A stretch of DNA of 59,549 nucleotides from the IMG/VR virus record IMGVR_UViG_3300032038_004959, one strand, 5' to 3'. The first letter of the stretch is position 1. Each line of letters opens with the position of its first letter. The notes beneath the pieces were generated by a model, which searched no databases, was not told where the DNA came from, and was given only the letters and a program-made list of their open reading frames with translations. Source of the stretch: a virus. A program made the translations under genes and the position numbers. This document shows positions 1 to 28,510 of this stretch, piece by piece.

Positions 1-127
1 TCCTTGCAGAAGTCTTGCAACTGCGCCCCTCCGTATTCGATGAGACCATGCTTGCTTATCCATTCCTCCGCTCGCTGAAATAGTGATGCTGATTTCTTCA
101 TGTCTGCAAATCGATTAGTTTATAGAA
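1..127. repeat. Terminal direct repeat identical to 59423..59549 (circular-closure overlap)
   Basis: Bases 1..127 read identically to 59423..59549. The repeat cuts through the 5' end of the terS-like ORF, so it is not a gene boundary. Confidence 0.9.
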
Positions 128-682
128 CTCTCTTTTGAGTTCAGGATTTTTCTCGAATAACCCTGTGAAGTGAGCCACAGACATATTGCCATCATTCCTC
201 ACGCCTCTCATCGTCTTACAGAGATGCTTTCCTCTCATCACGATAGCGAAGCCGAGAGCATCATCATTCAGAGCCTCTGAAAGCATATTCACAATATCTC
301 GTGCGAGCCGTTCCTGAAGCTGCAATCGGGCAGCGCAATAGCCGACTACACGAGCGACCTTTGAGATGCCGAGGATGCGCCCTTTCGGATTGGGGATGTA
401 GGCAAAATAATACTTACCGAAGAAAGGCAGGATATGATGCTCACACATTGAGTAATAATCTCCTGTATCGAATACCAAATCCGAGATACCTTCCTCATTC
501 GGGAAAGTGGTAATCTTCGGCTTCTGAGCAGGGTCATAGCCTCTGAATATCTCTTTCCACATACGCACAATTCGGTCGGGAGTGCCTTTCAGACCATCTC
601 TGTCAGGATTCTCGCCGATAGCGATTAAGAGAGCTGTTATCGCACTCTTAATATCTTCTGTGTTTGGAGTGATAGTTTCCAT
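98..682 (-). CDS. folE: GTP cyclohydrolase I (FolE type)
   Basis: 194 aa. Motifs GTPDRIVRMW, SMCEHHILPF and GISKVARVV are typical of GCH-I. The stop overlaps the terS start as ATGA at 98..101 when the genome is circularised. Confidence 0.9.
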   Translation of the reverse strand: METITPNTEDIKSAITALLIAIGENPDRDGLKGTPDRIVRMWKEIFRGYDPAQKPKITTFPNEEGISDLVFDTGDYYSMCEHHILPFFGKYYFAYIPNPKGRILGISKVARVVGYCAARLQLQERLARDIVNMLSEALNDDALGFAIVMRGKHLCKTMRGVRNDGNMSVAHFTGLFEKNPELKREFYKLIDLQT

Positions 683-1221
683 TTTGGATTAGCTTTTACA
701 AAGTTTACACAATGCTCGATGATTTCTCTGTTTCGTTGCTCATCGCCTGTATCGCAAGGCTGCACGAAATAATGCGCTGCCGTGATACCCCATGTAGGGT
801 CAGCATAGAGAGTCTTTCCATCGAGAACAATCTTCACCTCCTGAGCAGTCTTGATGACAGGCTTTCCGACTGAGCCGACATAAGTCTCTTTCGGAGATAC
901 CGTCACCCAATCGACATTCGAGGGAACTTCACGAGTGCCGTTCGTCTCGATAGCAACCATCTTTCCGAGGTCGTGAATCTTATCCACGAGCGAGCGAGTG
1001 AGCTGCAAGGTCGGCTCTCCGCCTGTGATGACAACGAGAGATGCAGGATATTTTGCGATTTCAGCGCATATCTCATCCTCTGTGAGGTCTTGGTAAGGCT
1101 GATGCTCAGTATCGCAGAAAGAGCATCTCAGATTGCATCCTGAGAGCCTCAGAAAGATAGCCGCCTCTCCTGAGTGCGCTCCCTCTCCCTGAATCGAATA
1201 GAAAATCTCATTTACTCTCAT
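637..1221 (-). CDS. queE: 7-carboxy-7-deazaguanine synthase (radical SAM)
   Basis: 194 aa. N-terminal IFYSIQGEG and radical-SAM cluster motif CNLRCSFCDT. It sits between queD and folE. Confidence 0.9.
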   Translation of the reverse strand: MRVNEIFYSIQGEGAHSGEAAIFLRLSGCNLRCSFCDTEHQPYQDLTEDEICAEIAKYPASLVVITGGEPTLQLTRSLVDKIHDLGKMVAIETNGTREVPSNVDWVTVSPKETYVGSVGKPVIKTAQEVKIVLDGKTLYADPTWGITAAHYFVQPCDTGDEQRNREIIEHCVNFVKANPKWKLSLQTQKILRVR

Positions 1222-1574
1222 AGCGCACCATCATCTTTGAGTTTGTCATCTACATAAACGGCGAAGTTGCCCTCACTCTCTCTGACTGATGCCTTATAGC
1301 ACTGAGGAATCTGCTCGACAATCCATCGGGCGATATTCTCTGCGGTGGGATTGAAAGGCAGCAGCTCATTCAGGTTCTGATGGTCGAGCTTGCCATGAAT
1401 CTTCTCTTTGATATGCTTGAAGTCACAGACCATGCCATCCTTGTTGAGCTTCTTAGCCTTGCAATAGACGGTGATAATCCAATTGTGACCGTGCAAGTTC
1501 TTACACTTGCTCTCGTAGGATAATTTCAGAGAGTGACTCCCTGCAATCTCCATTCTCTTTGAAACATAGTACAT
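1218..1574 (-). CDS. queD: 6-carboxy-5,6,7,8-tetrahydropterin synthase
   Basis: 118 aa. Contains the SHSL...LHGHNW...CDF pattern typical of QueD/PTPS. Overlaps the queE start by 4 nt. Confidence 0.9.
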   Translation of the reverse strand: MYYVSKRMEIAGSHSLKLSYESKCKNLHGHNWIITVYCKAKKLNKDGMVCDFKHIKEKIHGKLDHQNLNELLPFNPTAENIARWIVEQIPQCYKASVRESEGNFAVYVDDKLKDDGAL

Positions 1575-1607
1575 AAGCGATATTGATTTGATATGATTAA
1601 ACTTGGT

Positions 1608-2267
1608 TTATTCCTCATATTCGGTCGGGTCATCGATGCCTGCATCCCTGAGAGCCTCTTTGCGTTCTATGCAAGTGCCACACTTGCCGCAATGCTTCTC
1701 GCCTCCCTTGTAGCAGGAATAGGTCTTTGAGTAATCAATTCCGAGAACCTTGCCGACCTTAGCAATATCGGTCTTTGAGAACGAGGTATAAGGAGCATAG
1801 ATATTGATATGCTCGTATGTGCCGTATGCCATTGCCTGATTCATTGCATCGATGAATGTAGCTCGACAATCGGGATAGATGGCGTGGTCTCCTGCATGAT
1901 TGGCGATGAGAACCTTTGTCAGACCTCGACTCTCTGCAAGACCACAGGCGATAGAGAGCATGATGCCATTACGGAAAGGAACGACAGTCGATTTCATGTT
2001 CTTATCCTGATAGTGACCCTCAGGAACTGCATCCGCTCCCTCCAAGAGAGACGATTTGAAATACTTGCCCATGAAGTCGAGAGGGATGATGAGATGCTCG
2101 ATACCGAGCCGCTTACAATGATAGGCTGCAAGCTCAGCCTCTCGTTTGTTGTGATTGCTGCCATAGTCGAAAGTGACTGCGAGAGCAATATAATCCTTTT
2201 GGTCGTACAGGAGCGTAACGCTATCCATGCCACCTGAAAGAATGATGATTGAATTCTTCTGTTTCAT
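1608..2267 (-). CDS. queC: 7-cyano-7-deazaguanine (preQ0) synthase
   Basis: 219 aa. PP-loop SGGMDS at the N-terminus and a C-terminal zinc motif CGKCGTCIERK. Confidence 0.9.
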   Translation of the reverse strand: MKQKNSIIILSGGMDSVTLLYDQKDYIALAVTFDYGSNHNKREAELAAYHCKRLGIEHLIIPLDFMGKYFKSSLLEGADAVPEGHYQDKNMKSTVVPFRNGIMLSIACGLAESRGLTKVLIANHAGDHAIYPDCRATFIDAMNQAMAYGTYEHINIYAPYTSFSKTDIAKVGKVLGIDYSKTYSCYKGGEKHCGKCGTCIERKEALRDAGIDDPTEYEE

Positions 2268-2337
2268 AGTCTCTGATATTTTGAATTATTGATGAAGTCG
2301 GCTTTTTATATAGCAAATCCGCATTCTACGCAATCAA

Positions 2338-3231
2338 TCAAAGATGATTCTCAGCATATTTGCCGAATTTCACCCATTCATTGAAATTGTTTACTGCGCC
2401 CTCTCTCGATTTGAGTCTGCATCCCTCTTTGCCTAATTGCTCCAATAGACCTGTGCGAGGATTGAACTTATAGAGATAGCCGCCACGATTGCCGTAGAGC
2501 CATGCGGTACTATCAACGCTATCGAAGTGATATTTCCTCAGATTGGCAACGGTGGTATATCCGAGACCATGTATCTTGCACTTATGCTCATGCGCCGTCT
2601 TGATGAACCACGGAAATGCCGTCTCGTATTTCTTTCGGTCAATCTCTTTCGTGACGATGCCGCCGAGAGCCACATAAGGATAGTTCTCGCACATCTTGAT
2701 GAAATACTCCTTGCCTCGATTGCGATGCCATACAGGGATAGGCTTCTTTCCTGTCAGAGCTTCGAGTTTCTCCCTGAGCCGTTCTACCTCAGTCAGACCG
2801 ACTACGGAATCAATATCAAGCTCGAAAAAGAGCTGCACGTTCCATCGATTGATGAATGCCGCATATTCCTCGACATACTCATCCCAATTTATGCCGCCTT
2901 TGTGCGAGCCTGACATGAACGTGAAAGCTCCTGAATCGAGCAGGAATGAGCCGAAGTGCTTAACAAGCGTCATAAATTCCTCGTTCTTTCTGAGGTAGTA
3001 GAATGATTCGAGGATATTGATGCCTTTCAGAGCATTCTCCCCTGTGAAGAAATCGCATCCATAGAGTTTTTCTCTGTGGATTTTCTTCTTATTGTTATCT
3101 CCTGCGATATATACTTTCATAGCGTCCATTACCTCACCTCGTGAGCGAGGGTCTGCGAGATAGATTTTTATTACCCTTTGCCAAAATTCACGGAGATTTC
3201 CTGAGATGCCTCCTGCGAGAAATATCTTCAT
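2338..3231 (-). CDS. dpdA: DpdA-like DNA 7-deazaguanine transglycosylase (TGT superfamily)
   Basis: 297 aa. LLDSGAFTF and HGLGYT motifs as in phage/bacterial DpdA. Immediately upstream of queC-queD-queE-folE. The true start could be an internal Met (MKVYIAGD). Confidence 0.75.
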   Translation of the reverse strand: MKIFLAGGISGNLREFWQRVIKIYLADPRSRGEVMDAMKVYIAGDNNKKKIHREKLYGCDFFTGENALKGINILESFYYLRKNEEFMTLVKHFGSFLLDSGAFTFMSGSHKGGINWDEYVEEYAAFINRWNVQLFFELDIDSVVGLTEVERLREKLEALTGKKPIPVWHRNRGKEYFIKMCENYPYVALGGIVTKEIDRKKYETAFPWFIKTAHEHKCKIHGLGYTTVANLRKYHFDSVDSTAWLYGNRGGYLYKFNPRTGLLEQLGKEGCRLKSREGAVNNFNEWVKFGKYAENHL

Positions 3232-6417: not shown

Positions 6418-8631
6418 TTAGTCGAATAATGATTTCTGTGATTTCAGTTGCTCCATTCCCTTGATATTCTTGATAGCCTCCTTGAAATAGCTCTCTTTCA
6501 GCTCAAAGCCGATGCCGAAGCGATTGAGCTTGACTGCCTCATAGACCTCTGAGCCGATGCCTAAGAATGGTGTCAGGACGGTATCGCCCTCATTGCTCCA
6601 TAGGGTGATGGCTCTCTCGATAGTGTCGAGCTGCAAAGGACAGATATGTTTCTCGTCTGCTTCATCACGACCTTTGGCTGCATTGAGAGTGTTCGAGTAG
6701 TCAATATCCATCCAAACAGGCGATGCGTACTTCTGCCAAGTATCGACAGAGATATTGCAGTGAACAGGATGCTCATGCTCGCCATCTTTGCGGAAAACCA
6801 TCAAGTAATCAGGAATACCGACACGACTCATGGCTGCATCCTTGCCGACCTGCTTATGCAACAGACCGAGAGCCTTTGTGCGCTGCATCTCCGTGACAGG
6901 ATTCTTCCAGATGGTGACTCTCGAATGATAGATGAAACCTACCTCTGTGAATGCCTGGAGTATCATGCCTGAGAAATCCCTGAGACCGATATATCCCTCC
7001 TTGCCTTTCTGAATAGGCAAATCCATGCAATGTACGGCGATATTTCGCCCCCCCCACATGACACGATAGAGCTCTTTCACGAGGAACTTGAATGCCTTGA
7101 AAAACTCCTGATAATCCTTTGAGTTGCCCATATCCTCCAATTTGTCGGAATAGGTGTAAAGCTCTGCGAATGGTGGCGAGAATATCGAGAAACCGATGCT
7201 CTCGTCAGGGATTGACTGAATGAGCTGCACACAATCGCCAAGGCGAATATCGCAGCGTTCTGATTTATACTGATTGCTTACTTCCATCTTTTTGAGTATT
7301 ATTTTATTCTTGATATTACGATTCATTGCCTCAGTCATAGCCGACTGCATCTCATTAAACGCTTTCTGCTTTGCATCGAAGCTGTATTTCACGTTCTGCA
7401 TCGTATCGGTCGTGATAAGATAGATATTGACCGCCTCTTTCTGTCCGAAACGATAGGAACGGCGGATTCCCTGATAGGTTGCCTCAAATGAGAAATCGAG
7501 AGAGGCATATATCTGATTGTGGCAGTTCTGATAATTGAGACCGAACTGAGCGATTTTGAGCTTGGTGATGAGGATGCGGAAATCACCATTGCCGAAGCCG
7601 AGCAGCTTTTCTTTCTTGTATTCTCTCGAATCAGAGCCTTTCACCTCGATTGCCTCAGGCAGCAGGGAACGGAGATATTTTCCCTCGTCATCGTGACCTA
7701 TCCAAATGATGAAGTTCTCATCGGGTCGAGCTTTCACCATCTCAGCCACTCTGTCAAGACGGATTTTGTAGGTCAAGCGCAGCTCTTTGTGAAACTCGGT
7801 TGCAGATACGGCAGATGTATTGAATAGCATTCCGTTATCTCGCTTGGGAGTCTCGACAATATCCTGAATGACATTGAGAGGTGGCAGGTCGTAGCCTTTA
7901 TCATCGAAGCCTATATCACTCGGTTTGTTGAGCATCACCGCCCAAGTCGAGACGAAATCCCAAAAGCTCTGCTTTGCATGACCTTTGAGCCTCCAATCTG
8001 AGGTTGAGCCTCCATCATGCACGAAATACATTGCGAGCATCTCTGAACGGCTCATCACATCGAGGAACTCAGCATGATTGCAGATTTCGGTCGTATCATT
8101 CGGTGATGGAGTAGCCGTGCAAGCGAGCTTATAGGGAGTGCGCTTGAACTGTTCGATGATATAGGTTCTCGTCTTTCCCTGAAAGTTTTTCAGGATAGAG
8201 CTTTCATCGAGAACGATGCCTCCGAAACATGATACATCGACATTCGGCAGATTATCATAGTTCGTGATGAAGATTCCCAAATCACCGATATAGGTAGATG
8301 CTTCATCATACTCAGTCACCTTGTAGCCGAATTTCTTTCCCTCTTTGATGGTCTGAGAGATAACGGCGAGAGGTGCGAGGATGAGAACAGGCTGGTCGGT
8401 ATGCTCGAAAACCTTTTGCGCCCATTCGAGCTGCTGAATGGTCTTTCCGAGACCGCAATCTTCAAAGAGGGCAAACTTACCGACCGCTAATGCTCGTTTC
8501 ACACAATACTTCTGAAAATCGAAGAGTGCAGGATTGAGGTCTGCATCCTCAACGGCAAATCCGCTCTCGATTCTCTGAGTTTTCTTCTGTTCGAGAAACT
8601 CATTATACTCTTTCTTTTCTTGCTCTGTCAT
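6418..8631 (-). CDS. SNF2/DEAD-like helicase fused to an N6/N4 DNA methyltransferase
   Basis: 737 aa. N-terminal half has GLGKT (motif I), VLDESS (motif II) and RSYRFGQ (motif VI). C-terminal half has SPPF (methyltransferase motif IV) followed by TPFLGIGS (motif I). Confidence 0.85.
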   Translation of the reverse strand: MTEQEKKEYNEFLEQKKTQRIESGFAVEDADLNPALFDFQKYCVKRALAVGKFALFEDCGLGKTIQQLEWAQKVFEHTDQPVLILAPLAVISQTIKEGKKFGYKVTEYDEASTYIGDLGIFITNYDNLPNVDVSCFGGIVLDESSILKNFQGKTRTYIIEQFKRTPYKLACTATPSPNDTTEICNHAEFLDVMSRSEMLAMYFVHDGGSTSDWRLKGHAKQSFWDFVSTWAVMLNKPSDIGFDDKGYDLPPLNVIQDIVETPKRDNGMLFNTSAVSATEFHKELRLTYKIRLDRVAEMVKARPDENFIIWIGHDDEGKYLRSLLPEAIEVKGSDSREYKKEKLLGFGNGDFRILITKLKIAQFGLNYQNCHNQIYASLDFSFEATYQGIRRSYRFGQKEAVNIYLITTDTMQNVKYSFDAKQKAFNEMQSAMTEAMNRNIKNKIILKKMEVSNQYKSERCDIRLGDCVQLIQSIPDESIGFSIFSPPFAELYTYSDKLEDMGNSKDYQEFFKAFKFLVKELYRVMWGGRNIAVHCMDLPIQKGKEGYIGLRDFSGMILQAFTEVGFIYHSRVTIWKNPVTEMQRTKALGLLHKQVGKDAAMSRVGIPDYLMVFRKDGEHEHPVHCNISVDTWQKYASPVWMDIDYSNTLNAAKGRDEADEKHICPLQLDTIERAITLWSNEGDTVLTPFLGIGSEVYEAVKLNRFGIGFELKESYFKEAIKNIKGMEQLKSQKSLFD

Positions 8632-11190: not shown

Positions 11191-11871
11191 CTATTTCTGT
11201 GCGTTCTGACCCCTATATGAGGGATTCTTGAAGATTATCTTCGTCATCATCTCGTTAAAGCGGTCAGCGATTCGGTCTTTATACTTCTCTCGAATCTCCT
11301 GAGGTCGGAGATTGGTAGTGATGACCGTAAAGAGCTGTTCATTGTAGCGATAGGAGAGCAAATCGATTACAGGACTGAGGATATTGCCATAATCGAGAAC
11401 CTCTGTCGGCTCTAACCCCAAATCATCGATGCCGAGCATCTGCCTGTTTCGATATGCCTTGAATTGCTCATACGAATCCTTGTTCAGTCTCGCAATCTCT
11501 CTCGCATCGATTATCGCCAATCCCATATCTCGATTGAAGTCATCTTTCAAATCGAGCATATTGATGCAAGTCTGAATCGCTCTCATTAGTGTGGTCTTGC
11601 CGTTGCCTGGCACTCCGCAAAGAAGCAATCCGAAAGTCTTGCCCTCTTTGAGCCATTGAGCAGCCTTTTCGATGTAAGAATTCATCTCAGGACTCGCTCT
11701 GTACTCTTGATGCCGATATGCGACCTCAGTTATCACGCAAGCCGTTAGCATATCTCTCATCTGCTCATCGGTATAGGGCAGTTCAAAACGCCCCCTCGTA
11801 ATCCTCCGCTGAAGTAGCCGTGACATCAGAGCCTCTACGTTTATTTTCTGATTTTTGTCTATCTGAAACAT
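11191..11871 (-). CDS. DnaC/IstB-like AAA+ helicase loader
   Basis: 226 aa. Walker A GVPGNGKT and Walker B-like LGIDDLG. It follows the replication initiator gene. The start may be an internal Met. Confidence 0.8.
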   Translation of the reverse strand: MFQIDKNQKINVEALMSRLLQRRITRGRFELPYTDEQMRDMLTACVITEVAYRHQEYRASPEMNSYIEKAAQWLKEGKTFGLLLCGVPGNGKTTLMRAIQTCINMLDLKDDFNRDMGLAIIDAREIARLNKDSYEQFKAYRNRQMLGIDDLGLEPTEVLDYGNILSPVIDLLSYRYNEQLFTVITTNLRPQEIREKYKDRIADRFNEMMTKIIFKNPSYRGQNAQK

Positions 11872-12655
11872 TGTTCTTTCGTTTTTCGGCTTCGAGTTGA
11901 ATTCTCAGCCAATCATTAAAATGCCTTCGGGTATCATTGAAGTCCTGATGCTCCGTTCCCCTGCAATCGCAATCGAGAGCAAAGTCATCCAATCGCCTCA
12001 CTATCTCGTCTATCGGAATATGGAATCTCATCGCCATCTGTTCGAGCCATATCTGAGCATTCTTCAATTCTTCGATGAATTTCAAATTTTTCGACTCGCC
12101 CTTAGATGATATAGATGTAGAATTATTATTCTTATATTCTTTATTTCCGTCAACTATGGTATAAACTTGGCCATCAACTATGGTATCAACTTTCGTTTCG
12201 CCTTTATACCCTAAACTATCTGATTTAATGATATTTACCTCCGAAATTGGCTTATCAACTTTACCCCTTATTTTTTCATCATTTTGCCTATTAACGATGC
12301 TGTCAATTTGGGTATTAAGCGTTGAATCATCATTACATTGATATTTCTCATAATTGCAGATAGTTAGGATAGAAGTTTGCCTGTAAATAGTGCTTCGTTT
12401 TATCATATCCTCTCCCTCCAAGAGCCTCAGGAACTTTATTATTGTCGGATGACTCTTTCCCCATCTCTCAGAGAGAAAGGATATTGATGCGATTATCTGA
12501 CCTCTGCGCAATACGAACAGATGAGAATCATGCAGGACTTGCTTATCTTCCCAAGCGGCGAGAAAGAGCAAATCAAGCCACCATCTCAGCCTTTCGGCAT
12601 CCTGCCATAGCCAATGACTTGCAATCTCTCTGCTTATTTTTATCCATCCTGCCAT
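11783..12655 (-). CDS. Putative replication initiator / replisome organiser (winged-helix N-terminus)
   Basis: 290 aa. N-terminus WIKISREI...WLWQD...RRGQ...SISFLSERWGKS..TIIKFLRLLE resembles phage replication initiator wHTH domains. Upstream of the DnaC-like gene. Confidence 0.55.
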   Translation of the reverse strand: MAGWIKISREIASHWLWQDAERLRWWLDLLFLAAWEDKQVLHDSHLFVLRRGQIIASISFLSERWGKSHPTIIKFLRLLEGEDMIKRSTIYRQTSILTICNYEKYQCNDDSTLNTQIDSIVNRQNDEKIRGKVDKPISEVNIIKSDSLGYKGETKVDTIVDGQVYTIVDGNKEYKNNNSTSISSKGESKNLKFIEELKNAQIWLEQMAMRFHIPIDEIVRRLDDFALDCDCRGTEHQDFNDTRRHFNDWLRIQLEAEKRKNNVSDRQKSENKRRGSDVTATSAEDYEGAF

Positions 12656-12666
12656 ATCGTCTCAGT

Positions 12667-13245
12667 TCAAGCAAATAGAAATTTCTCCCAAATATCGATG
12701 AATTGCTTTCCGCAATACTCAGCAAGCTCTCTCGTTTTGAAGGCAAGCCGAGAACCGTTAATCGTACTCGAGTCCGATGACGCATAAACCGCATCCGCAA
12801 AAACGACACCGCCACCCGCATTCGCATTGCTACCCGACCGACCAACGACACGGCACTCTTTCTTCTCATCCTCATCGAGTTCCTCATATTCCTTTTTGGT
12901 GTATATGTAGAACCAAGGATAATAACGGCACTCATCGCCATCGAACTTCGGCTTCCATCCCTCATTCAGAGCCTCTGCGATGATAACGAGGCGAGTATAA
13001 GCGAAAAGATGCAGATTATTGTCAGCCTCTTTGAATGAGCTTTCTATCACCCTGAACTGAGCGACAATAGGATGCTCATCTCCGAGGATTGCGACTGCAT
13101 CCTCAAAGGTCTTGACCTTATCTTTGATGTCCTGAGCAAAGATTTCTTTGCCGAAAAGATGCTCCAAAAGCTCTCTGCCGTTGGCATCTGTATTGTTGTA
13201 AGCTGCAAGTGCATTCCCAGCACTTATCTTCAATTCTTTATCCAT
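12667..13245 (-). CDS. Small DGR target protein (C-terminal variable C-type-lectin/FGE-like region)
   Basis: 192 aa. The C-terminus CRVVGRSGSNANAGGGVVFADAVYASSDSSTINGSRLAF is a third copy of the TR/VR sequence. No signal peptide is seen. Confidence 0.85.
   Translation of the reverse strand: MDKELKISAGNALAAYNNTDANGRELLEHLFGKEIFAQDIKDKVKTFEDAVAILGDEHPIVAQFRVIESSFKEADNNLHLFAYTRLVIIAEALNEGWKPKFDGDECRYYPWFYIYTKKEYEELDEDEKKECRVVGRSGSNANAGGGVVFADAVYASSDSSTINGSRLAFKTRELAEYCGKQFIDIWEKFLFA
12743..12855 (-). repeat. DGR variable repeat 2 (remote VR)
   Basis: A 113-bp hand alignment to TR 30201..30313 gives 13 differences. All are at coding-strand adenines of the TR; none are at other bases. Confidence 0.85.
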
Positions 13246-13391: not shown

Positions 13392-14129
13392 TCAGTAGGG
13401 TATTGATGATAGGTCGATTTCCAAGCCTCTCCGAGCAATATAGGTCGGCTTACCTGATACCGCTTTTATTTCCTTGCGGAAACGCTCTGCATCGCTATTG
13501 TTTCCTGAGAGATGGATAAGGATTATCTCTGACACCTCAGAGAGGTCATTTGCCATGAGAATTCCTTTCGTTGTCTCAATCTCCATGTGCGAGTGCAGGA
13601 GGCGGTCTTTCATCGAGTGCGGCACGATGCCCGATTCTATGTTTTGCAGGAGAATATCATCCGCATAGTTCGCTTCGAGCATGATATGATTGAGTTTCGG
13701 CAATCTGTATTCAAGCATCATCGTATCGGTGACGAATAGCATCCTGCCCATCTCTTTATGCTCTATGACGAAACCAAGACACGGCACATCGTGAGCCACG
13801 CTCAGACAGAAGATTTTGAAACCGCCTACCTGATAGCCGTGCATCGGCTGAACCTCCTTGCAGAATACCCGATTCCTCAGATTATGAGAATCGAACACCT
13901 GAGGCAAAGCCAAGACCTTGATACCATAGGAGAGAATATCTTTCAGGCTTCGGGAATGGTCTCTATGCTCATGCGAGATAACACAGCCGAGAACCTGCTT
14001 TAATTGAAATCTGAGAGCTTTTTTTATCTCGATAGCAGGAATACCTGCCTCGATGATTAAAACGCCGTCAGAGGCTTCTAAAAGATAGCAGTTGCCCGAT
14101 GAACCTGAGCCTAAACATTTGAGTACCAT
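13392..14129 (-). CDS. Metallo-beta-lactamase fold hydrolase (possible recombination exonuclease)
   Basis: 245 aa with the HEHRDH (HxHxDH) motif. Adjacent to recT. Confidence 0.8.
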   Translation of the reverse strand: MVLKCLGSGSSGNCYLLEASDGVLIIEAGIPAIEIKKALRFQLKQVLGCVISHEHRDHSRSLKDILSYGIKVLALPQVFDSHNLRNRVFCKEVQPMHGYQVGGFKIFCLSVAHDVPCLGFVIEHKEMGRMLFVTDTMMLEYRLPKLNHIMLEANYADDILLQNIESGIVPHSMKDRLLHSHMEIETTKGILMANDLSEVSEIILIHLSGNNSDAERFRKEIKAVSGKPTYIARRGLEIDLSSIPY

Positions 14130-14149
14130 TCCCTGTCATGATTTAGATA

Positions 14150-15073
14150 TTAGTAACTTGGAGCTTCTTCTGCATTCTCAGCAGGAGATGCTTCTGATTC
14201 TTTGATTTCGCCTGTCTCTGTATCGACTTCCTCGTATTGAGCGGTATCGAGTTCGATAGACTGACCATTCGCATTCTCGCTGATAAGGTCGTTTCGGCTC
14301 ATCTGAGAATCCTCGACATCCTTTGAGAGAGCGTTCTGCATCTCGACAGAGAGATAGCCATACTTCGAGAGCAAACGGCGGATGACGGTCTTTAACGCCA
14401 TATCATTGAAGTTGCCCTCCCAACCGACCTTGCTTGATGGCTGATTCGCCTGAGCGAGCTTGATGAGAGCTTCTGCACTCGGTTTTTTATTGCCCTTGAA
14501 TGATGGAGAATATCTCAAAGCATAAGCAGCCATATCCTCGACACTCACAAAGAGGGTCTTATTGAAGCCGTTGAGCATCTCGAAATAGCAGAAGTAGCCG
14601 ATAATCTTGTCAGACTTCTTTTCTCCATCGAGAGCGATTTCACCTGTGAGCTTCGATACTTTTCTCATCTCGCCCTCGTAAACGAAATCGGCATTGATGG
14701 TGCGATACTGACCTGTGCGCATAGCGAGTTGGATATATCCCTTGTAGCCAGGCACGAATGTAGGTGTAGGAACTTTCGACCATGAACCATCTGCATTCTT
14801 AACCGAGTTATTGAATACGATGATGTAGGCGAAACCGAGAGCCTTGTTGAGAGGAAGTCTCAGGGTCGCAGCTCTGAGAGCCTCTGCTATCACGAGTGCA
14901 GGCTTGCAGGTTTGCAATTGCTTATCGCCTGTAAAGAGGTCGATGAGCGATGCCACGAAAGCATCTTTGTGTTCACCGAGAGCGTTCTGAAACTGCTCTT
15001 GGACGGATGGAGCGTTGATAACCGACTTCATCAGGTCGATAGGTCGCTCCTGCTTTTGGATTTCATTTGCCAT
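14150..15073 (-). CDS. recT: RecT-family single-strand annealing protein
   Basis: GYKGYIQLAMRTGQY and the surrounding sequence are typical of RecT. Start placed at MANEIQ (15073), because TTCAACGCAT lies 2 nt upstream and the longer ORF would overlap the HNH gene. Confidence 0.85.
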   Translation of the reverse strand: MANEIQKQERPIDLMKSVINAPSVQEQFQNALGEHKDAFVASLIDLFTGDKQLQTCKPALVIAEALRAATLRLPLNKALGFAYIIVFNNSVKNADGSWSKVPTPTFVPGYKGYIQLAMRTGQYRTINADFVYEGEMRKVSKLTGEIALDGEKKSDKIIGYFCYFEMLNGFNKTLFVSVEDMAAYALRYSPSFKGNKKPSAEALIKLAQANQPSSKVGWEGNFNDMALKTVIRRLLSKYGYLSVEMQNALSKDVEDSQMSRNDLISENANGQSIELDTAQYEEVDTETGEIKESEASPAENAEEAPSY

Positions 15074-15110
15074 AATGCGTTGAAATTTTGAATTGTGAAA
15101 CATAAATTGA

Positions 15111-15704
15111 TTATTTATATCTCCATATAAAGGAGTTTGTCTGTTTGAGATAGCCATTTGCAACTCTCGCTATTGATGATGCGTTACTATGCGTCATTTC
15201 TGCTGCCATTTTTACGCTATCATATTCACGGATGAATTGCCTTGATAAATCATATTGCAGAACTTTCTTTGAATTAGGATTGAGAGAGCCTCGTTTCCCA
15301 AACATTCCATTCTTTTCTCCTGTTTGGTTTCGATTGGCGATACCTCTTGCTATACGAGTTCCATAATTCCGATTTTCTTTAATCGTAGCCCATTCGAGAT
15401 TTTCTACTCGATTATCGGTCTTATCTTCGTTGATATGATTGACCTCAGGCTTATTCTCAGGATTAGGAATGAAAGCCAATGCGACTGCACGATGAATAGC
15501 CATTCTCTTAGCTTTTCCGTTTTTACTCAGAAATACAAACATATATCCGCTTTTCTGATACAAGGGCAATAGGATGAAACCTCTTAGATTTTTGGTCGTT
15601 TCGCCATTTCTTCTTACTATTCTATCAATAGAGCGTATCTGCCCTTGATTACTCACCTGATATAATCCCTCGTACTGAGGTATATCTCTCCATTCTTCTT
15701 TCAT
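15111..15704 (-). CDS. HNH homing endonuclease (NUMOD4 + HNH + C-terminal HTH-like module)
   Basis: 197 aa. EEWRDIPQYEGLYQVSNQGQIRS (NUMOD4-like) and VNHINEDKTDNRVENLEW (HNH). Paralogous to 17659..18255. Confidence 0.85.
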   Translation of the reverse strand: MKEEWRDIPQYEGLYQVSNQGQIRSIDRIVRRNGETTKNLRGFILLPLYQKSGYMFVFLSKNGKAKRMAIHRAVALAFIPNPENKPEVNHINEDKTDNRVENLEWATIKENRNYGTRIARGIANRNQTGEKNGMFGKRGSLNPNSKKVLQYDLSRQFIREYDSVKMAAEMTHSNASSIARVANGYLKQTNSFIWRYK

Positions 15705-17647
15705 TTTATAATCAGTTTATCATCTTCGGTTACTACGAGCAAAATCATCTGACTTGCAATCTTCGGCACATTATTGATAGCCTCTGCATTATCCAAGAAA
15801 CAAGGAGCGGTGATTTGCTCATACTTGCATATCGCACTGATAATATCCAATCCTGCGATAATCTTCATGGCATTGTTCAGGTCTGAGTAAGGCACTCCGT
15901 TCACGGTAGCCTCACAGGTCTCGACCTCGCCACCATTGATTTGCTGCTCGAACATCTTGAACTTGACGAGAGAGAAAAGTCCATTGATACGATTCTCAAC
16001 GGCTTCGATGCGAGCTTTCGAGAATGCTGCCATAGTGAACTCGATACCCTCCAACTGAGCCAATTCCTCGCTCTGTTCCCTGAGCTGCTTTTCAAGCTCT
16101 TTGATACGAGCCTCATTGCGCTCGATGGTCTCTTTCTTGGCGAGCTTCGCCTTGATAGCATCAATCTCATCGGTGATGGATTTCTTCTGCTCATTCAGCT
16201 CTACGGTATCAGGCACATCAATAGGAGTATTGACGGTTTCTTCAAGCTCTGCAATCTGTTGGATGAGATTCTTGATTTCCTCATCTGATTCGATAGCAGG
16301 AGCAGCATCAGGAGCAACGAGGGATTTGCTATAAAGAGGATTATTCTTGATAGTCTCGATGCGAGATTCAAGCTCTGAGATACGTTCCTCGCATTTCTTG
16401 ATGAGAGCTTCGGTCTCCTGAGTGTTTTTCTTGACCTGCTGACCTTTGCGATTGTTTTCTTCGAGGTCGGATGCTTTCTTCGTATTGAAGTTGGCGGTCA
16501 TCTCGTTCTGCTTACGCTCAATATCATCAATATCGAGAGGTCGCTTGCAGGTCGGACAGATGAATTCATCATCCTTAAATTGTAGAGTGCGAGCCTTAAT
16601 CTCTCGCCATTCAGCGATGAGAGCTTCACGCTTGGCTTTGAGAGATTCCAAATCTTTTTGATAGCCCTGCATCTCAGAGCGGACACGAGATAGCTCATTC
16701 TGAGCCAAAGAGAGATTATCTTTCAATTCTCTCTGCGATTTGCACTCTGCATAGTAATCGCTCTGAACACTCTCTTTGATTTTGAATTCCCGATTCTGCT
16801 TTTCCTGACGGAGATTCGAGAGCTTCTGTTGCAGCTTCAGTCGGGTATCGCTCGCATTCTTGTATGCCTGAGATTTATCTGCGATAGCTTTCTCAATCTC
16901 TGAGAGCTGAGATTTCTTCGTATTCAGGTCAGTATCGAGTATCAGCCAATTCTCAGCCTCAGGCATATCTCGCTTACGCTCATCGATACGCTCAGGGATG
17001 CCATCGATTTCTGCCTTGATTCTGCGTTTCTTCGCCTGAATCTCTCTCTTATACTCTTCCATCGTCTTACCTGTGAGAGATGCAAGGAGAGCTGTGAAAT
17101 CTTCGTTTCCTGCGGCTATCTCCGCATCGCTGATGTCTCCTGCCATCCTGAAAAGCATCGCTCTCTGAGCATCGGTTTTCTGAGCTGAGAAATAGAGAGG
17201 ATTGGTGATGAACTTAAAGACCTGCTCTGAGCATATAGAGGTGATTTTCTCTCCCCATTCCTTGACAGACATAGGAACATCATTATAGAGCCTTTCTTCT
17301 TCATGCCCTGTGAATTCCTCAGTAGCAGAGCCACGTTTCTTCTGCCATTTCTCAGAGTAACGGCGACAGAGGGATATTTCCTCATCATCGACCGTCAGGA
17401 TAGCCGATACCTCATGCGGAATGCGAGGGATAGCCACGCCCTGAGCATCGAGGGTCTTGATATTGAAACTCTTTCTATCTTCGCTATCCTTGCCGAATAA
17501 GAGCCAAGTGAAAGCATCGAAGATAGTTGTCTTTCCTGAGCCGTTCTTTCCGAGAACGCTCGTCATCGAGTCATTGAACTCGATTTGAAACTCCCTGAGA
17601 CCTTTGAAATTCAAAAGGGAGAGCCGTTTGATAATTACCTTTTTCAT
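15701..17647 (-). CDS. Rad50/SbcC-like AAA ATPase with coiled coil and CxxC zinc hook
   Basis: 648 aa. Walker A GKNGSGKTT, a long coiled-coil middle with CPTC, and a C-terminal hydrophobic-D Walker B-like LLVVTEDD. Confidence 0.8.
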   Translation of the reverse strand: MKKVIIKRLSLLNFKGLREFQIEFNDSMTSVLGKNGSGKTTIFDAFTWLLFGKDSEDRKSFNIKTLDAQGVAIPRIPHEVSAILTVDDEEISLCRRYSEKWQKKRGSATEEFTGHEEERLYNDVPMSVKEWGEKITSICSEQVFKFITNPLYFSAQKTDAQRAMLFRMAGDISDAEIAAGNEDFTALLASLTGKTMEEYKREIQAKKRRIKAEIDGIPERIDERKRDMPEAENWLILDTDLNTKKSQLSEIEKAIADKSQAYKNASDTRLKLQQKLSNLRQEKQNREFKIKESVQSDYYAECKSQRELKDNLSLAQNELSRVRSEMQGYQKDLESLKAKREALIAEWREIKARTLQFKDDEFICPTCKRPLDIDDIERKQNEMTANFNTKKASDLEENNRKGQQVKKNTQETEALIKKCEERISELESRIETIKNNPLYSKSLVAPDAAPAIESDEEIKNLIQQIAELEETVNTPIDVPDTVELNEQKKSITDEIDAIKAKLAKKETIERNEARIKELEKQLREQSEELAQLEGIEFTMAAFSKARIEAVENRINGLFSLVKFKMFEQQINGGEVETCEATVNGVPYSDLNNAMKIIAGLDIISAICKYEQITAPCFLDNAEAINNVPKIASQMILLVVTEDDKLIIK

Positions 17648-17658
17648 TTGCGTTGAAA

Positions 17659-18255
17659 TTAAAGTTTATATTGCCATTTATAATTCCCTGCCGTTTTAGC
17701 CTTACCTCTTGCAACGGCACATATTGAAGTCATACAGATGCCGAGTTTCTCAGATGCTTTTTTGATACAATCCCATTCTTTTATGAATTTTCCATCTTTC
17801 GTGAGTTGTATTATTTTCTTTGCATTGGGATTTAATCCATCCTTATGTTCACGATGCCATTTCCTATCTCTATTTGAATGACCTCTTTCAATGCCTGTCC
17901 CATAATGGAGATTATCATTAAGGCTCATCCATTCGAGATTAGTAGCTCTATTATCTCGCTTATCTTCATTGATATGATTTACGGTACTCAGATTATCAGG
18001 ATTTGGAATGAAAGCCGTAGCAACAATCCGATGAATCAGGTAGTTTTTATTTTTCCCATTTTTACAGAGAGTTACAGAGAGATAGCCATCCTTCCTCTCA
18101 ATAGGGCATAATATCTGACCTTTAATCGTAACAAATCCCTTTTCTCCCCATCGTGTCCGTCTTGGAGTAGTTCTATCAAGAGAGCGGATGTTTCCGAGGT
18201 TGCTGACCTCATATAAATCCTCATATTCAGGTATAGATTTCCATTCTTCACTCAT
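17659..18255 (-). CDS. HNH homing endonuclease (NUMOD4 + HNH), paralog 2
   Basis: 198 aa. EEWKSIPEYEDLYEVSNLGNIRS and VNHINEDKRDNRATNLEW. Confidence 0.85.
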   Translation of the reverse strand: MSEEWKSIPEYEDLYEVSNLGNIRSLDRTTPRRTRWGEKGFVTIKGQILCPIERKDGYLSVTLCKNGKNKNYLIHRIVATAFIPNPDNLSTVNHINEDKRDNRATNLEWMSLNDNLHYGTGIERGHSNRDRKWHREHKDGLNPNAKKIIQLTKDGKFIKEWDCIKKASEKLGICMTSICAVARGKAKTAGNYKWQYKL

Positions 18256-19512: not shown

Positions 19513-19618
19513 ACTTTAATTATTTTTAATGTTAAACTTTATGCTTATTAGGCATTATTTTATTATCTCTGCACCCAAATTTTCATCGAGTGCGGCAATA
19601 ACTTTCCGTATTGCGTTG

Positions 19619-21103: not shown

Positions 21104-22297
21104 TCACTTCTTTTTCTTCGGCTTTTCCTTCTTTCCCTTTGGCTCAGGTCTGAGAACATTCGGGATATTGGCGACCGCTTTCTGCTTATTCTTATCCATC
21201 ACCTTTGCATATATCTGTGTCGTGGAAAGCTCACGATGACCGAGTAGCTTGCTGACGGTGTAGATGTCCGTTCCGAGGTCAAGCATCATTGTGGCGAATG
21301 TATGCCGTCCGCAATGGAATGTGATTTTCTTATCTATCTTTGCCCTCAATACCCATTCCTGAATAGCCTTATTCGTGCATGATGGTGAGTGAATATCCTG
21401 AAAGACCTGCTCATTCGGTTTCCCTCTTTCGCCCATCAGCTCCGCAGCCTGTGGAGTGATGTCGAGATACTCCTGCCCCTGAGTCTTTTTCTGCCTGAAT
21501 ATGATTCGGGTGAAATCCCCTTGATGATGAACCTCTCCCCAAGTGAGTTTCAGAATATCGCTCCGTCTGAGACCTGTCAGACATGAGAATAAGAAAGCAG
21601 CCTTGATGCGAGGATATTCACATTCTGTCTGAGCGAGCTTTCTAACCTCATCGATGGTGAGATACATTCTCGTTCCTTCTTCTGCTTTGAAATTCTCGAC
21701 ATTGCGAGCAGGATTGATGGGGATAATCCTATCCTCGAAAGCCTGATTGAGACACGCCCTGAGCTTATTGAAGTAACTGAGTTTAGAGTTTCGGGCGAGA
21801 GGCTTATCTTTGATACGAGTGCGATAATCATGCGCCCAGGCAACCGCCTCGTTTTCGAGATAATCGTGAAATCCCTGCACCCATTCCTGAGTGATATTGG
21901 CAAATGTCAGTTTCTCATTCTTATCATAGATTAGAAGATGATGCAGACACGAGAACCAATTTCCCCAATTACTACGGCTCTCAGCTCCGAGCCTCTTTTG
22001 GCACATAGCACGATAATAAGGATAGAATAGGGTATCGGTCGCAAATTCTGATTTGAACCCATATTCGCCGTTCTGCATCTCGACAATCCTCTTTGACTTG
22101 ATGGAGTTGGCGAGCTGCATGGTCTGTCGATTCGTTTCCTTATCCTCTTTGGTGCGCTCAGGGATGAGATAGAGCTTCAGGAATTCATAAGTTCTCTTTC
22201 CGTCTCTATATATATCAAGATAGAGACTGATGTTACCGTTCTGCAAAGGCTTCTGTCTGACCTTTATCGGCTCTTTAATTTTCTTTTCTTTCGCCAT
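21104..22297 (-). CDS. int: Tyrosine integrase (Bacteroidetes phage/CTn type)
   Basis: C-terminus has HCGRHTFATMM...LLGHRELSTTQIYAKV (R-H-R-Y catalytic pattern). Start placed at MAKEKKIKEP (22297), with TTCAACGCAT 6 nt upstream. The longer ORF adds an implausible leader. Confidence 0.9.
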   Translation of the reverse strand: MAKEKKIKEPIKVRQKPLQNGNISLYLDIYRDGKRTYEFLKLYLIPERTKEDKETNRQTMQLANSIKSKRIVEMQNGEYGFKSEFATDTLFYPYYRAMCQKRLGAESRSNWGNWFSCLHHLLIYDKNEKLTFANITQEWVQGFHDYLENEAVAWAHDYRTRIKDKPLARNSKLSYFNKLRACLNQAFEDRIIPINPARNVENFKAEEGTRMYLTIDEVRKLAQTECEYPRIKAAFLFSCLTGLRRSDILKLTWGEVHHQGDFTRIIFRQKKTQGQEYLDITPQAAELMGERGKPNEQVFQDIHSPSCTNKAIQEWVLRAKIDKKITFHCGRHTFATMMLDLGTDIYTVSKLLGHRELSTTQIYAKVMDKNKQKAVANIPNVLRPEPKGKKEKPKKKK

Positions 22298-22326
22298 ATA
22301 CTGATGCGTTGAATATCGATGTCTTT

Positions 22327-22625
22327 TTGTTACTTTTGTGACCCGAAATAATCGAGTAACAAAATGGTAACGCAAATATAGCACTTTCCTGACATAATAA
22401 CGGCATAGATAATAGATTTATTGTATTTGCATCCGAAATACTGATTTCAGAGGCTTTTGTGCTGATTTGATGCTGGTTCTATGCTGATAGAGTGCCATTC
22501 TAATTTGCTGAGAATTTCCGTCATTACTTACCCACGCAGGATATTTGTAACTATATTATAACTCAGTCATTTACAGAACGATTAGAGCATATTAGAGTGA
22601 GTCGGAGTAACAAACGAGTAACAAA
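22327..22625. promoter_or_regulatory. Putative attP region with arm-type repeats AGTAACAAA
   Basis: Copies of AGTAACAAA at 22356..22364, 22606..22614 and 22617..22625, plus an inverted copy at 22327..22335. They flank about 240 bp of non-coding DNA next to int. Confidence 0.45.
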
Positions 22626-24529: not shown

Positions 24530-24548
24530 GCCGAGCTGAATTTTGGTA

Positions 24549-27720: not shown

Positions 27721-28005
27721 TTACTTTTTATAATTGAAATAGAAATTGCCGAAAAGCCTCACTCCTACGAAATAGAGCGAAGCAATGAAAGTGAACCATA
27801 TCACCGCAAACAGATTCTTATTCTCTTTCTTCACGACTTTCATCATATTCACATAAAGATTCATATCTGCATCGAAACGGTCATCACTATCGCCTCCCCT
27901 GTCATAGTCATCATCGTGCATGACACACGGAGTATAGAATTTCTTAGCATAGGGAGGCTTAATATATTTAAGCACTCCCTTTTGGCAACCGCATCCCTTA
28001 CTCAT
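27721..28005 (-). CDS. Small membrane-anchored protein with a C-x-x-HD-x-x-Y motif
   Basis: 94 aa. PCVMHDDDYDRGGDSDDRFD followed by a C-terminal TM helix (FAVIWFTFIASLYFVGVRLF). Confidence 0.4.
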   Translation of the reverse strand: MSKGCGCQKGVLKYIKPPYAKKFYTPCVMHDDDYDRGGDSDDRFDADMNLYVNMMKVVKKENKNLFAVIWFTFIASLYFVGVRLFGNFYFNYKK

Positions 28006-28510
28006 CGCTCACAACGAAAAGAGAGTAATCGATTGAATCTTTCTCCTGCCATCCCTCTTTGAGAGCGTTATTGATGAATGCAAAAGCTCTCATCACGAAA
28101 TCAGCAAGCACCTCAGTCTTGGTGAATGTGTGATAAACAGGATTGCCCTCTGCATCCTCTCCGAGCTTGAATTTCGCAGGGAGATTTGCGCCCTCTGTCT
28201 GAAATGCGAGGTCGTAGGCAGCTTTGAAATTGAACTGATTTTCCGATGAGAGATATACAGGCTTTCCGTTCCATGAGAACCCTGTGAGGATAGTCGCATC
28301 GGTATGAGCATTGATGAGTGCCTCGATGTCTGCTTTGACCTCTGCGATGGTCGGGATATGGTCGTAGTCCTTACGCCAATTATAGCCACTCTCTGCATCC
28401 TCTGAGTCTTTGCCGAAACCTACATAGATGCAAGCCTTTGTCGATGACAATTTCACGATGCCATCCTGACGCTCAGATGCGCCATAAATCTTGAAAAAAT
28501 CTGTATTCAT
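27998..28510 (-). CDS. Hypothetical tail-module protein (DUF4376-like?)
   Basis: 170 aa. FSWNGKPVYLSSENQFNFKAAYD resembles what I recall of DUF4376 tail-fibre-associated domains. Not Avd-like: it is neither a short basic protein nor predicted to be a helical bundle. Confidence 0.4.
   Translation of the reverse strand: MNTDFFKIYGASERQDGIVKLSSTKACIYVGFGKDSEDAESGYNWRKDYDHIPTIAEVKADIEALINAHTDATILTGFSWNGKPVYLSSENQFNFKAAYDLAFQTEGANLPAKFKLGEDAEGNPVYHTFTKTEVLADFVMRAFAFINNALKEGWQEKDSIDYSLFVVSDE

Follow-up and report, generated by a model that had tools for sequence, protein, structure and literature searches.

Why would a phage carry a variable repeat (VR) of its DGR inside a group of recombination and replication genes, many kilobases from the cassette that would diversify it? 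Apart from adaptive immunity, DGRs are to our knowledge the sole means by which nature hypermutates chosen proteins, and tail-fibre tropism switching is the only use of them by phages that is understood. The window analysed here, the whole 59,549-nt stretch of IMG/VR virus record IMGVR_UViG_3300032038_004959, encodes a DGR reverse transcriptase (RT), a template repeat (TR) and a tail-fibre-like primary target, and, in another part of the genome, a stand-alone protein of 192 aa that contains a further copy of the repeat (Table 1). The locus raises the questions of whether this protein is a genuine second target, whether it is still being diversified, and what it might bind.

Table 1 Features of the window that bear on the second DGR target
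Feature	Coordinates	Strand	Remarks
DnaC-like loader	11191..11871	-	downstream replication genes (11191..12655)
DnaD-like replisome organiser	11783..12655	-	downstream replication genes
Remote DGR target, stand-alone variable protein, 192 aa	12667..13245	-	phrog_11581
3' anchor CGGTTCTCGGCTTGC followed by VR-specific CTTC (TR: AAAC)	12739..12757	-	putative IMH-like; VR1 = VR2
VR2, mutagenised variable repeat	12743..12855	-	codons 131-168 of the target; 13/13 TR mismatches at adenines
5' A-free anchor TGCCGTGTCGTTGGTCGGTCG	12835..12855	-	same sequence in TR, VR1 and VR2
Small upstream ORF, 50-66 aa	13238..13438	-	8-nt overlap with target start (ATGGATAA)
MBL hydrolase	13392..14129	-	upstream recombination module (13392..17647)
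RecT	14150..15163	-	upstream recombination module
HNH	15111..15704	-	upstream recombination module
SbcC-like ATPase	15701..17647	-	upstream recombination module
170-aa ORF directly downstream of RT	27998..28510	-	phrog_19239, E=2e-48; weak DUF4376 match
DGR reverse transcriptase, 492 aa	28512..29990	-	RVT_1; phrog_1423, E=3.5e-74
Small hairpin GGGGCGAAACTCCCC directly 3' of TR	30168..30182	-	seen in sequence; kept in related TR loci
TR core	30201..30313	-	VR1 homology runs on to 30184
Primary DGR target, 2620 aa, tail-fibre-like	30436..38298	-	phrog_14959, E=3e-160; phrog_5302 'tail protein' also matched
VR1 core	30467..30579	-	C-terminus of the 2620-aa protein; 17/18 mismatches at A

A repeat search identified a three-copy family in the window, at 12726-12855, 30184-30313 and 30450-30579, which correspond to the copy in the 192-aa target (VR2), the TR and the copy in the fibre gene (VR1), with VR2 and TR separated by 17,458 nt start to start. 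Compared base by base on the minus (coding) strand, VR2 differs from the TR at 13 positions, every one of them a TR adenine; as the TR holds 27 A per 113 nt, the probability of this outcome is P = 5e-10 (hypergeometric), and a chance repeat as the origin of VR2 was rejected on these grounds. The earlier note had read the third copy as a remote second DGR target and had held that mismatches at other bases would undermine that call; on realignment all 13 remain on adenines. VR1 differs from the TR at 18 positions, 17 at A and one a C>T change at 30548, with a substitution pattern different from that of VR2. At A sites, VR1 and VR2 share an identity of 0.41 when both come from one genome and of 0.39 when they come from different genomes, and on this equality a coupling of their specificities was rejected. 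The two repeats are diversified independently of each other, as the earlier note had proposed from their substitutions.

The 21-nt 5' anchor, shared by all three copies, pulled out TR/VR1/VR2 triplets from related contigs. At the other end, TR, VR1 and VR2 have a 15-nt GC-rich sequence in common, followed by CTTC in the VRs and AAAC in the TR, an arrangement that is invariant across genomes. Positions 12740..12742 (VR 'CTT' versus TR 'AAA', the same in VR1) thereby add three differences at A sites; since they occur in both VRs and the residues that cover them, A168 and F169, are invariant in the population (H=0), they represent a fixed VR-versus-TR (IMH-type) difference and not mutagenesis. 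TR homology of VR2 stops at 12738, and the fixed differences of VR1 reach to 30450. By comparison with IMH/IMH* of BPP-1, the CTTC-ended 3' anchor would be a putative IMH-like element that marks a VR as the recipient, and the retention of adenines in the TR suggests that transfer runs from TR to VR. Folding revealed no BPP-1-type hairpin or cruciform 3' of VR2 or VR1 (z=+1.2 and +0.45). The small hairpin 3' of the TR may be part of a DGR RNA spacer; the 91-nt stretch that holds it has a non-significant folding score (z=-1.2).

The RT shares 47% identity with the DGR RT of Hankyphage, and its start is preceded by the TR at a distance of about 210-320 nt. A search for an Avd gene found none: the coding strand has no ORF of at least 80 aa in the interval from fibre gene to RT, and the 170-aa ORF that follows the RT, which also adjoins it in related loci L032, L034, L041, L046, L069, L078 and L088, has no Avd-like match among Pfam and PHROGs profiles. 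The window shares with the BPP-1 DGR adenine-specific TR-to-VR transfer and an AAY-rich TR, and its GC-rich 3' anchor, which differs between VR and TR, would be the analogue of IMH/IMH*. Unlike in BPP-1, the second target is no tail fibre, lies 17.5 kb from the cassette and continues for 23 codons after the VR, and neither an Avd gene nor a downstream hairpin or cruciform was found. By analogy with BPP-1, the RT would copy TR RNA into cDNA mutagenised at adenines, and this cDNA would replace VR1 in the tail fibre and the distant VR2, each independently, both recipient sites presenting the A-free 5' anchor, the GC-rich 3' anchor and then CTTC. Read in the frame of VR2, TR adenines fall mostly within 12 AAY codons, and the scheme would randomise VR2 at 14 codons (these 12, one TAT and one ACG), which would give some 2e15 possible protein variants, with stop codons excluded.

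Judged from one genome alone, a target still in use looks no different from an inactive one, and VR2 might be a bystander or relic, a fragment of the fibre C-terminus caught in an early gene that is either no longer homed into or diversified without consequence. The earlier note had regarded a lack of variation at VR2, with VR1 varying, as the sign of such a relic. A population set comprised 115 proteins with 90-94% identity, almost every one a singleton cluster and from a different assembly, and in this set variation was found almost only at TR-adenine codons. Where a TR-A occupies position 1 or 2 of the codon (14 codons), entropy ranged from 1.2 to 3.2 bits; it was 0.11 at VR codons free of A and 0.07 in the remainder of the protein. 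The 192-aa length was intact in all 115 variants. When each repeat was compared with its own TR, VR2 of 8 genomes had 94 A-site and 1 non-A mismatches and VR1 across genomes had 141 and 6. Where the TR of a genome was polymorphic at non-A sites (1 to 14 of them), both of its VRs carried exactly the same changes, and in one genome VR2 was nearer its TR (7 mismatches, all at A) than VR1 was (15). At the level of sequence, these patterns show that TR-to-VR2 copying continues in the population and that VR2 is a live target; a dead relic is largely refuted by the variation at TR-A codons and by the copied non-A changes. The low entropy of the scaffold and the intact length of every variant further indicate strong constraint, which argues against a bystander as well as a relic. 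The failure to detect a BPP-1-type hairpin downstream of VR2 could be taken to favour decay, but the hairpin is missing at VR1 too, and a family with the VR signature that, clustered at 50% identity, still comprises some 1,900 groups in many Bacteroidales lineages also speaks against this explanation, which we regard as very improbable.

The 192-aa protein matches phrog_11581, a large family of uncharacterised phage proteins, over its full length (E=5.1e-54, with residues 6-191 aligned to positions 5-192 of the 200-position profile). Its homologues number 4703 at 90% clustering and form 1949 clusters at 50% identity, and more than 550 contigs in IMG/VR encode members of the family. It has a pI of 4.9 and a maximum KD19 of 0.84, and sequence analysis found no signal peptide, lipobox or TM/hydrophobic segment, in keeping with its earlier description as a small stand-alone ORF without signal peptide or TM segment. 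BLASTP likeness to the fibre is confined to the VR (residues 131-170), and the C-terminus also matches the fibre family phrog_14959. No Pfam match was obtained for the protein even at E 10, nor for any of the 83 members of its alignment; a PADLOC search gave no match, and PDB sequence searches gave none for either the family profile or the fibre C-terminus. Ten longer, N-terminally extended homologues carried no Pfam domain, and the six of them compared with PHROGs matched phrog_11581 only, plus phrog_14959 in two, with no informative fused domain. Two AF2 models, built from 83 diverse sequences (A3) and from 51 sequences comprising diverse members and close variants (A5), had mean pLDDT values of 82.5 and 77.1 and a mostly helical scaffold, with residues ~134-164, in the VR, below pLDDT 50 in both. 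Foldseek searches of the PDB with the AF2 model of the protein returned nothing at E<=0.001, only noise (globins, E>2), and searches of BFVD returned uncharacterised phage proteins only, structural neighbours that carry coarse Sipho-, Podo- and crAss-like virus labels. The lectin fold mentioned in the earlier note was an assumption; the protein is small, acidic and predicted to be soluble, and its scaffold is mainly helical in the models.

Profile matches of the neighbouring genes place the target between the MBL/RecT genes and the replication genes, and the 8-nt overlap upstream and the 11-nt gap to the next ORF downstream bear out its reported translational coupling within a recombination/replication operon. 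The small ORF that it overlaps is kept in close relatives only and has no family match. A helicase-methyltransferase is encoded 4 kb from the target gene. Megablast of the first 24 kb of the window yielded no match among GenBank phages.

This arrangement is common in Bacteroidales phages, and the family spans many Bacteroidales lineages. We examined 159 related loci (±10 kb each), found with a profile from a 15-sequence alignment, and A-depletion together with an amino-acid signature served as a proxy for RT presence in loci of this span. The VR-equivalent segment was A-poorer than the rest of the gene in all 159 (medians 0.12-0.14 versus 0.31-0.32), and its median K/Q/E/M/W content was zero, versus 0.29 elsewhere. 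Four IMG/VR loci had an RT cassette in reach, and in these the VR mismatches fell at A in 10/10, 12/13, 12/12 and 13/13 cases. A RecT/MBL/SbcC module lies beside the target gene in 54 of the 159 loci, a second, unrelated module in 31, and DnaD/DnaC genes alone in 15; in L033, L068 and L076, the three loci of the second type that were inspected, the target has a phrog_3657 protein on one side and a RecE/YqaJ-like exonuclease on the other. The target gene is usually co-directional with the adjoining recombination or replication genes, and across the 159 loci the nearest structural gene is never less than 3.3 kb away. Neighbours were unrecognisable by homology to the query proteins in 56 loci, so the synteny claim spans about two thirds of the sample.

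A remote, non-structural DGR target is a kind already reported, and the window locus adds another example. Quimbyvirus has a distal non-structural second target, ORF 80/84, for which the authors suggested a part in phage–host conflict rather than in the virion (Benler et al. 2021, PMC8008677), and such targets were described in four Bacteroidota prophages (Nature 2025, PMC12629997) in a paper without protein-family assignment or synteny analysis. LoVEphage, which is probably of the Quimbyvirus type given that the descriptions match, encodes a full-length homologue of the window target (QVQ57199, 33613..34197; 35% identical, with 98% of the query aligned), and the C-terminal VR of this homologue matches the LoVEphage TR and fibre VR. 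Like the target in the window, that of LoVEphage and Quimbyvirus is a small protein encoded on its own, at a distance from the RT cassette and not among the structural genes. The neighbours of its gene, in contrast, are methyltransferases, a nuclease and an RtcB tRNA ligase, a 'defence island' type of neighbourhood that is absent next to the window target with its RecT/MBL and DnaD/DnaC modules; the RT is a single ORF in the window and in three frames in Quimbyvirus and LoVEphage; and the window phage, with a 59.4-kb genome, belongs to another lineage. In Versailles (WAK79127), the homologue is also a remote DGR target (14/14 mismatches at A) with synteny as in the window, and it is annotated as a 'tail protein'; as likeness to the fibre ends at the VR boundaries, this label most likely derives from the VR alone. 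The same remote target, for which the earlier note had proposed a survey of related phages, is present in Versailles, LoVEphage and the four IMG/VR loci. The use of one TR for several independently diversified VRs is shared with tentaclin two-target cassettes (PMC10743442) and with the multi-target bacterial DGRs of Treponema and Legionella. In those systems, the target genes lie in or beside the cassette and encode structural or surface proteins with Ig domains or signal peptides, whereas the second target of the window is remote, has no signal peptide and is located in a DNA-metabolism operon. No virion proteomic data turned up in PMC8008677, PMC8525569, PMC12629997 or PMC12694917.

One explanation for these observations, to which we assign a probability of roughly 0.6, is that the phrog_11581 protein is a second working DGR target and most likely an intracellular binder of evolvable specificity in phage–host conflict. 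The gene would be co-transcribed and translationally coupled with early recombination and replication genes; gene order and the features of the protein point to early expression, a cytoplasmic location and a non-virion nature. The protein would then most likely bind a ligand inside the infected cell, the most plausible being a variable factor of the host or of a rival element that threatens recombination or replication of phage DNA. Lambda gam, P22 abc1/abc2 and Rac lar encode small non-structural proteins at the SSAP/exonuclease module that neutralise host nucleases or restriction, and we know of none among them that is hypervariable. The analogy with the window target is positional only, with no sequence or structural likeness detected; by this analogy, its position suggests a role in counter-defence. 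A more specific version, in which phrog_11581 proteins are DGR-driven 'adaptive binders', evolvable inhibitors of or decoys for variable host nucleases or defence sensors that attack phage DNA during recombination or replication, is put forward tentatively; it would account for the presence of the gene, in Bacteroidales phages, within recombination modules of two kinds that are unrelated to each other.

One may postulate alternative scenarios in which the protein acts outside the cell or at its surface. It could be a virion component, for instance a small auxiliary adhesin or a decoration of the tail tip whose gene lies apart from the structural genes, and its VR would then diversify a second receptor-binding surface. 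VR2 is written from the same TR as the fibre VR and hence yields the same type of variable surface, the C-terminus matches the fibre family, the Versailles homologue bears its 'tail protein' annotation, and the phage DGR targets that are understood experimentally are all receptor-binding proteins (BPP-1 Mtd; PMC8144416, and general background). Likeness to the fibre ends at the VR boundaries, however, and VR1 and VR2 diversify independently; moreover, in about 100 of the 159 loci the gene is co-directional within recombination/replication modules of two unrelated types, never beside structural genes, and the Sipho/Podo/crAss-like spread of BFVD labels, coarse as they are, would be unusual for a tail part. 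We therefore consider a virion role unlikely. A soluble lectin-like factor at or outside the envelope, either released at lysis or binding envelope or capsule intermediates from inside, seems a doubtful proposition, although release at lysis is compatible with the data and such a factor could possibly mask receptors on debris or lysogens or act in superinfection exclusion. Bacterial DGR variable proteins are mostly surface-directed binders (PMC8144416), and the highly variable surfaces of Bacteroidales, with their phase-variable capsules, would reward diversification (PMC9727126). Against this stand the lack of any signal peptide, lipobox or TM segment and the tight coupling of the gene to DNA-metabolism genes rather than to genes of lysis or lysogeny; the VR1 and VR2 sequences are also uncorrelated, so the 192-aa protein is no soluble copy of the fibre specificity. 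The earlier note had left open the choice between an intracellular binder and a misplaced virion adhesin, and rightly so; synteny favours a non-structural protein but stops short of proof.

The window locus is a clean and demonstrably active example of a remote DGR target, and the synteny of its family sharpens a published remark that such targets are found 'near counter-defence genes' into a specific link with recombination modules. Cultivable relatives, namely Versailles (Bacteroides caecimuris) and the LoVEphage-type BI-TP1 and PV4-TP1, allow experiments on such targets. Should the adaptive-binder reading prove true, these proteins would provide the first viral DGR target with a defined function that is intracellular and non-structural. 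A second class of targets, present in hundreds of Bacteroidales phages with a VR signature and a recombination or replication context, would imply that phages employ hypermutation for a purpose other than adsorption as well.

A repeat search of the window returned one three-copy family (12726-12855, 30184-30313 and 30450-30579), with the coding orientation of all three copies on the minus strand; within it lie the template repeat (TR) of the diversity-generating retroelement (DGR), the variable repeat of the tail-fibre-like gene (VR1) and a variable repeat in the ORF of the 192-aa target protein (VR2). The earlier note had described this last copy as differing from the TR at adenines only, and a base-by-base comparison bears this out: there are exactly 13 mismatches and all 13 fall on TR adenines, for which the chance probability is 5e-10 (27 A in the 113 nt of the TR). 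Of the mismatches in VR1, 17 are at A sites and one is a C>T; the substitutions in the two VRs are unrelated to each other. The C>T, at 30548, also occurs in VR2 of contig UMHR01005178, so non-A errors may recur at this position.

Both VRs share a 21-nt A-free 5′ anchor and, at the 3′ end, a GC-rich anchor with CTTC after it, and the TR homology of VR2 stops at 12738. Three further A mismatches at 12740..12742 read CTT in VR1 and VR2 alike and are invariant in the population; the CTT is most readily taken as a fixed difference between recipient and donor, like that of IMH and IMH*, and mutagenesis accordingly ends at 12743. Two other loci (IMGVR_UViG_3300013830_000249 and ERZ808240.909) have DGRs with the identical 5′ anchor, TGCCGTGTCGTTGGTCGGTCG, and TRs that are divergent beyond it; the A-free anchor thus seems to be kept across TR lineages.

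Coordinates of the features discussed
Feature	Coordinates	Strand	Description
Target ORF	12667..13245	-	192 aa, phrog_11581
VR2	12743..12855	-	in target ORF
VR1	30467..30579	-	in fibre-like gene
TR	30201..30313	-	adenine-rich, non-coding, adjoins RT
Reverse transcriptase (RT)	28512..29990		RVT_1, phrog_1423
ORF beside RT	27998..28510	-	170 aa, phrog_19239, weak DUF4376; begins 1 nt past RT stop
Late/structural block	~59.5 kb down to 24.6 kb		PHROG and Pfam scans
Fibre-like protein	30436..38298		2620 aa, inside late/structural block
Integrase	21104..22384		in lysogeny region; PHROG and Pfam scans
Early DNA-metabolism block	~18.3 kb down to 0.1 kb		PHROG and Pfam scans
7-deazaguanine/queuosine-type cluster	98..3231	-	GTP cyclohydrolase, QueE-like, QueD-like, QueC-like, TGT/DpdA-like transglycosylase
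Helicase-methyltransferase protein	6418..8631	-	737 aa; helicase region (phrog_16/62), C-terminal DNA methyltransferase region (phrog_67/498)
HNH endonuclease paralogues	15111..15704, 17659..18255	-	on either side of SbcC-like gene
Inverted repeat	19542-19581 / 24539-24578		40 nt, 85% complementary; encloses ~5-kb integrase-containing block
Perfect direct repeat	1-127, 59423-59549		127 nt, both window ends

Searched against 5.8 billion protein clusters, the target protein had 4703 relatives, the best 120 of which are 192-202 aa long, 90-94% identical and almost all singleton clusters from separate assemblies, a pattern expected from one short hypervariable segment. In an alignment of 115 of these 120, Shannon entropy reached 1.2-3.2 bits, with up to 14 residue types, at the 14 codons whose first or second position holds a TR adenine (12 AAY, TAT and ACG); it was 0.11 bits at the 22 VR codons without a TR adenine and 0.07 bits outside the VR. 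We then compared related contigs fetched from IMG/VR and metagenomes by means of a 21-mer that TR, VR1 and VR2 share. Across eight genomes that have both a TR and a VR2, mismatches to the genome's own TR numbered 94 adenine and 1 non-adenine for VR2, and 141 and 6 for VR1. Non-adenine TR variants relative to the window (one site in 7 of 14 recovered TR copies; 14 sites in two contigs sharing identical TR, VR1 and VR2) recur exactly in both VRs of the genome concerned, which is explained only by repeated copying from the TR into both. The possibility that VR2 is a dead relic, raised in the earlier note, is rejected on the strength of these mirrored variants together with a population variability concentrated at TR-adenine codons. 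Homing into VR2 is ongoing, one TR feeds both recipients, and we consider it nearly certain (probability about 0.97) that the ORF is an active remote DGR target. Independent homing of VR1 and VR2, also proposed previously, is upheld, since their likeness at A sites is no higher within one genome (0.41) than between genomes (0.39).

Genome Ga0326511_10000151 has a VR2 nearer to the TR than VR1 is. Six adenine sites in the 5′ part of its TR show VR-like substitutions, mirrored by VR2 and absent from VR1, which looks like VR2-to-TR gene conversion eroding template adenines.

The target protein is a full-length match to phrog_11581 (E=5e-54), a family of 1949 clusters at 50% identity in an exhaustive HMMER scan, mostly stand-alone proteins of 180-200 aa. 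Our survey covered 159 loci, 80 from viral contigs and 79 from species genomes (nearly all Bacteroidales), and the VR signature was present in every one: the adenine fraction was lower in the VR-equivalent segment than in the rest of the gene in 159/159 (medians 0.12-0.14 versus 0.31-0.32), this segment was the gene's lowest-A stretch in 156, and its median content of K/Q/E/M/W, residues unreachable from AAY codons, was zero. An RT cassette lay inside the ±10-kb flank in four of the 80 IMG/VR loci, each with a matching TR and with mismatches at A in 10/10, 12/13, 12/12 and 13/13 cases. The homologue in phage Versailles (Bacteroides caecimuris) has the same synteny as the window's target (SbcC-like, RecT, MBL, NinB, target, replisome organiser, DnaC-like) and a VR with 14/14 mismatches at adenines of that phage's own TR, which differs from the TR of the window; in LoVEphage, another Bacteroides phage, the C-terminus of the homologue matches that phage's own TR and fibre VR. 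Phrog_11581 looks to be a family of dedicated DGR variable proteins.

The surroundings of the ORF match those first described: it overlaps a small upstream ORF by 8 nt, is separated by 11 nt from the ORF that follows, and sits between RecT and MBL hydrolase genes upstream and a DnaD-like organiser and DnaC-like loader downstream. We probed neighbours across the 159 loci by tblastn with window proteins and two proteins from other loci, counting co-directional genes within 3.5 kb of the target. A RecT/MBL/SbcC-type recombination module adjoined it in 54 loci and an unrelated module (a phrog_3657 protein and a RecE/YqaJ-like exonuclease, phrog_434) in 31, while 15 had DnaD/DnaC-like genes only, 3 a VRR-NUC-like nuclease only and 56 no neighbour recognised by these probes. 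Three loci of the second type were examined (L033, L068 and L076), and in each the target has the phrog_3657 protein on one side and the exonuclease on the other. Of the functional hints at hand, this tie to two recombination modules that are not homologous to each other is the strongest. Structural proteins of the window had no homologue nearer than 3.3 kb to the target in the 159 loci.

The Versailles homologue (ON453897.1 10181..10762) is annotated as a tail protein via HHpred against PHROGs, probably an artefact that stems from fibre-family matches of the VR segment and not from whole-protein homology; similarity of the target to the tail fibre is limited to the VR (residues 131-170). The putative lectin fold is plausible only because the VR copies that of the fibre. 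Two AF2 models (pLDDT 82.5 and 77.1) both show a mostly helical scaffold, with VR residues ~134-164 below pLDDT 50. Foldseek gave no PDB match for the modelled target and only uncharacterised gut-phage proteins in BFVD; sequence searches found no match in PADLOC or the PDB, no Pfam domain in any family member scanned and no informative fused domain in longer homologues. No hydrophobic segment was found (pI 4.9), in agreement with the lack of a TM segment reported earlier. We favour a non-virion, intracellular protein, which seems reasonably probable.

By analogy with Bordetella phage BPP-1, the RT would copy TR RNA into adenine-mutagenised cDNA that replaces the VRs. Operon structure and sequence suggest an early product that remains cytoplasmic and could there present ~2e15 possible binding surfaces; its position suggests that it would bind some factor of the host or of a competitor that varies and that matters to recombination or replication of phage DNA. 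Lambdoid phages encode small anti-nuclease and anti-restriction proteins beside their recombinases, and the target might be their evolvable counterpart, although a role as a counter-defence binder is a tentative and rather doubtful proposal.

Because the two ends of the window are identical, it is a complete, circularly assembled phage genome of ~59.4 kb; nearly every gene is on the minus strand. GenBank phages gave no megablast match to its first 24 kb, and the closest chromosomal relatives of the target protein are in MAGs of Prevotella and other Bacteroidales. The queuosine-type cluster suggests DNA hypermodification against restriction. The HNH paralogues share 71-72% DNA identity across 100-156 nt, related loci have zero or one copy, and the pair look like mobile homing-endonuclease insertions. 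Neither an Avd gene nor a hairpin downstream of the VRs was found in the window; as the canonical Avd gene is absent, the ORF beside the RT, whose counterpart adjoins the RT in at least seven related loci, may be a DGR accessory protein that has gone unrecognised, or else a fibre-assembly protein.

In Quimbyvirus a second DGR target lies far from the structural module, with methyltransferases, a nuclease and a tRNA ligase around it, and a non-structural role in phage–host conflict was suggested for it (Benler et al. 2021, PMC8008677). LoVEphage fits that description (three-frame RT, same neighbourhood), and its distal target is a homologue of the window's target protein. Four Bacteroidota prophage species have a second distal VR near counter-defence genes (Nature 2025, PMC12629997), and the DGR targets in PMC12694917, PMC10743442 and PMC8144416 are fibre-like or cassette-internal only. 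A distal non-structural second target is thus of a kind already reported, which the window extends to a new lineage and to a different set of neighbouring genes. From our survey come the phrog_11581 assignment, the presence of a VR signature in every member surveyed and the link to recombination modules, none of which was found in the papers cited here. Cultivable relatives open the target to experiment.
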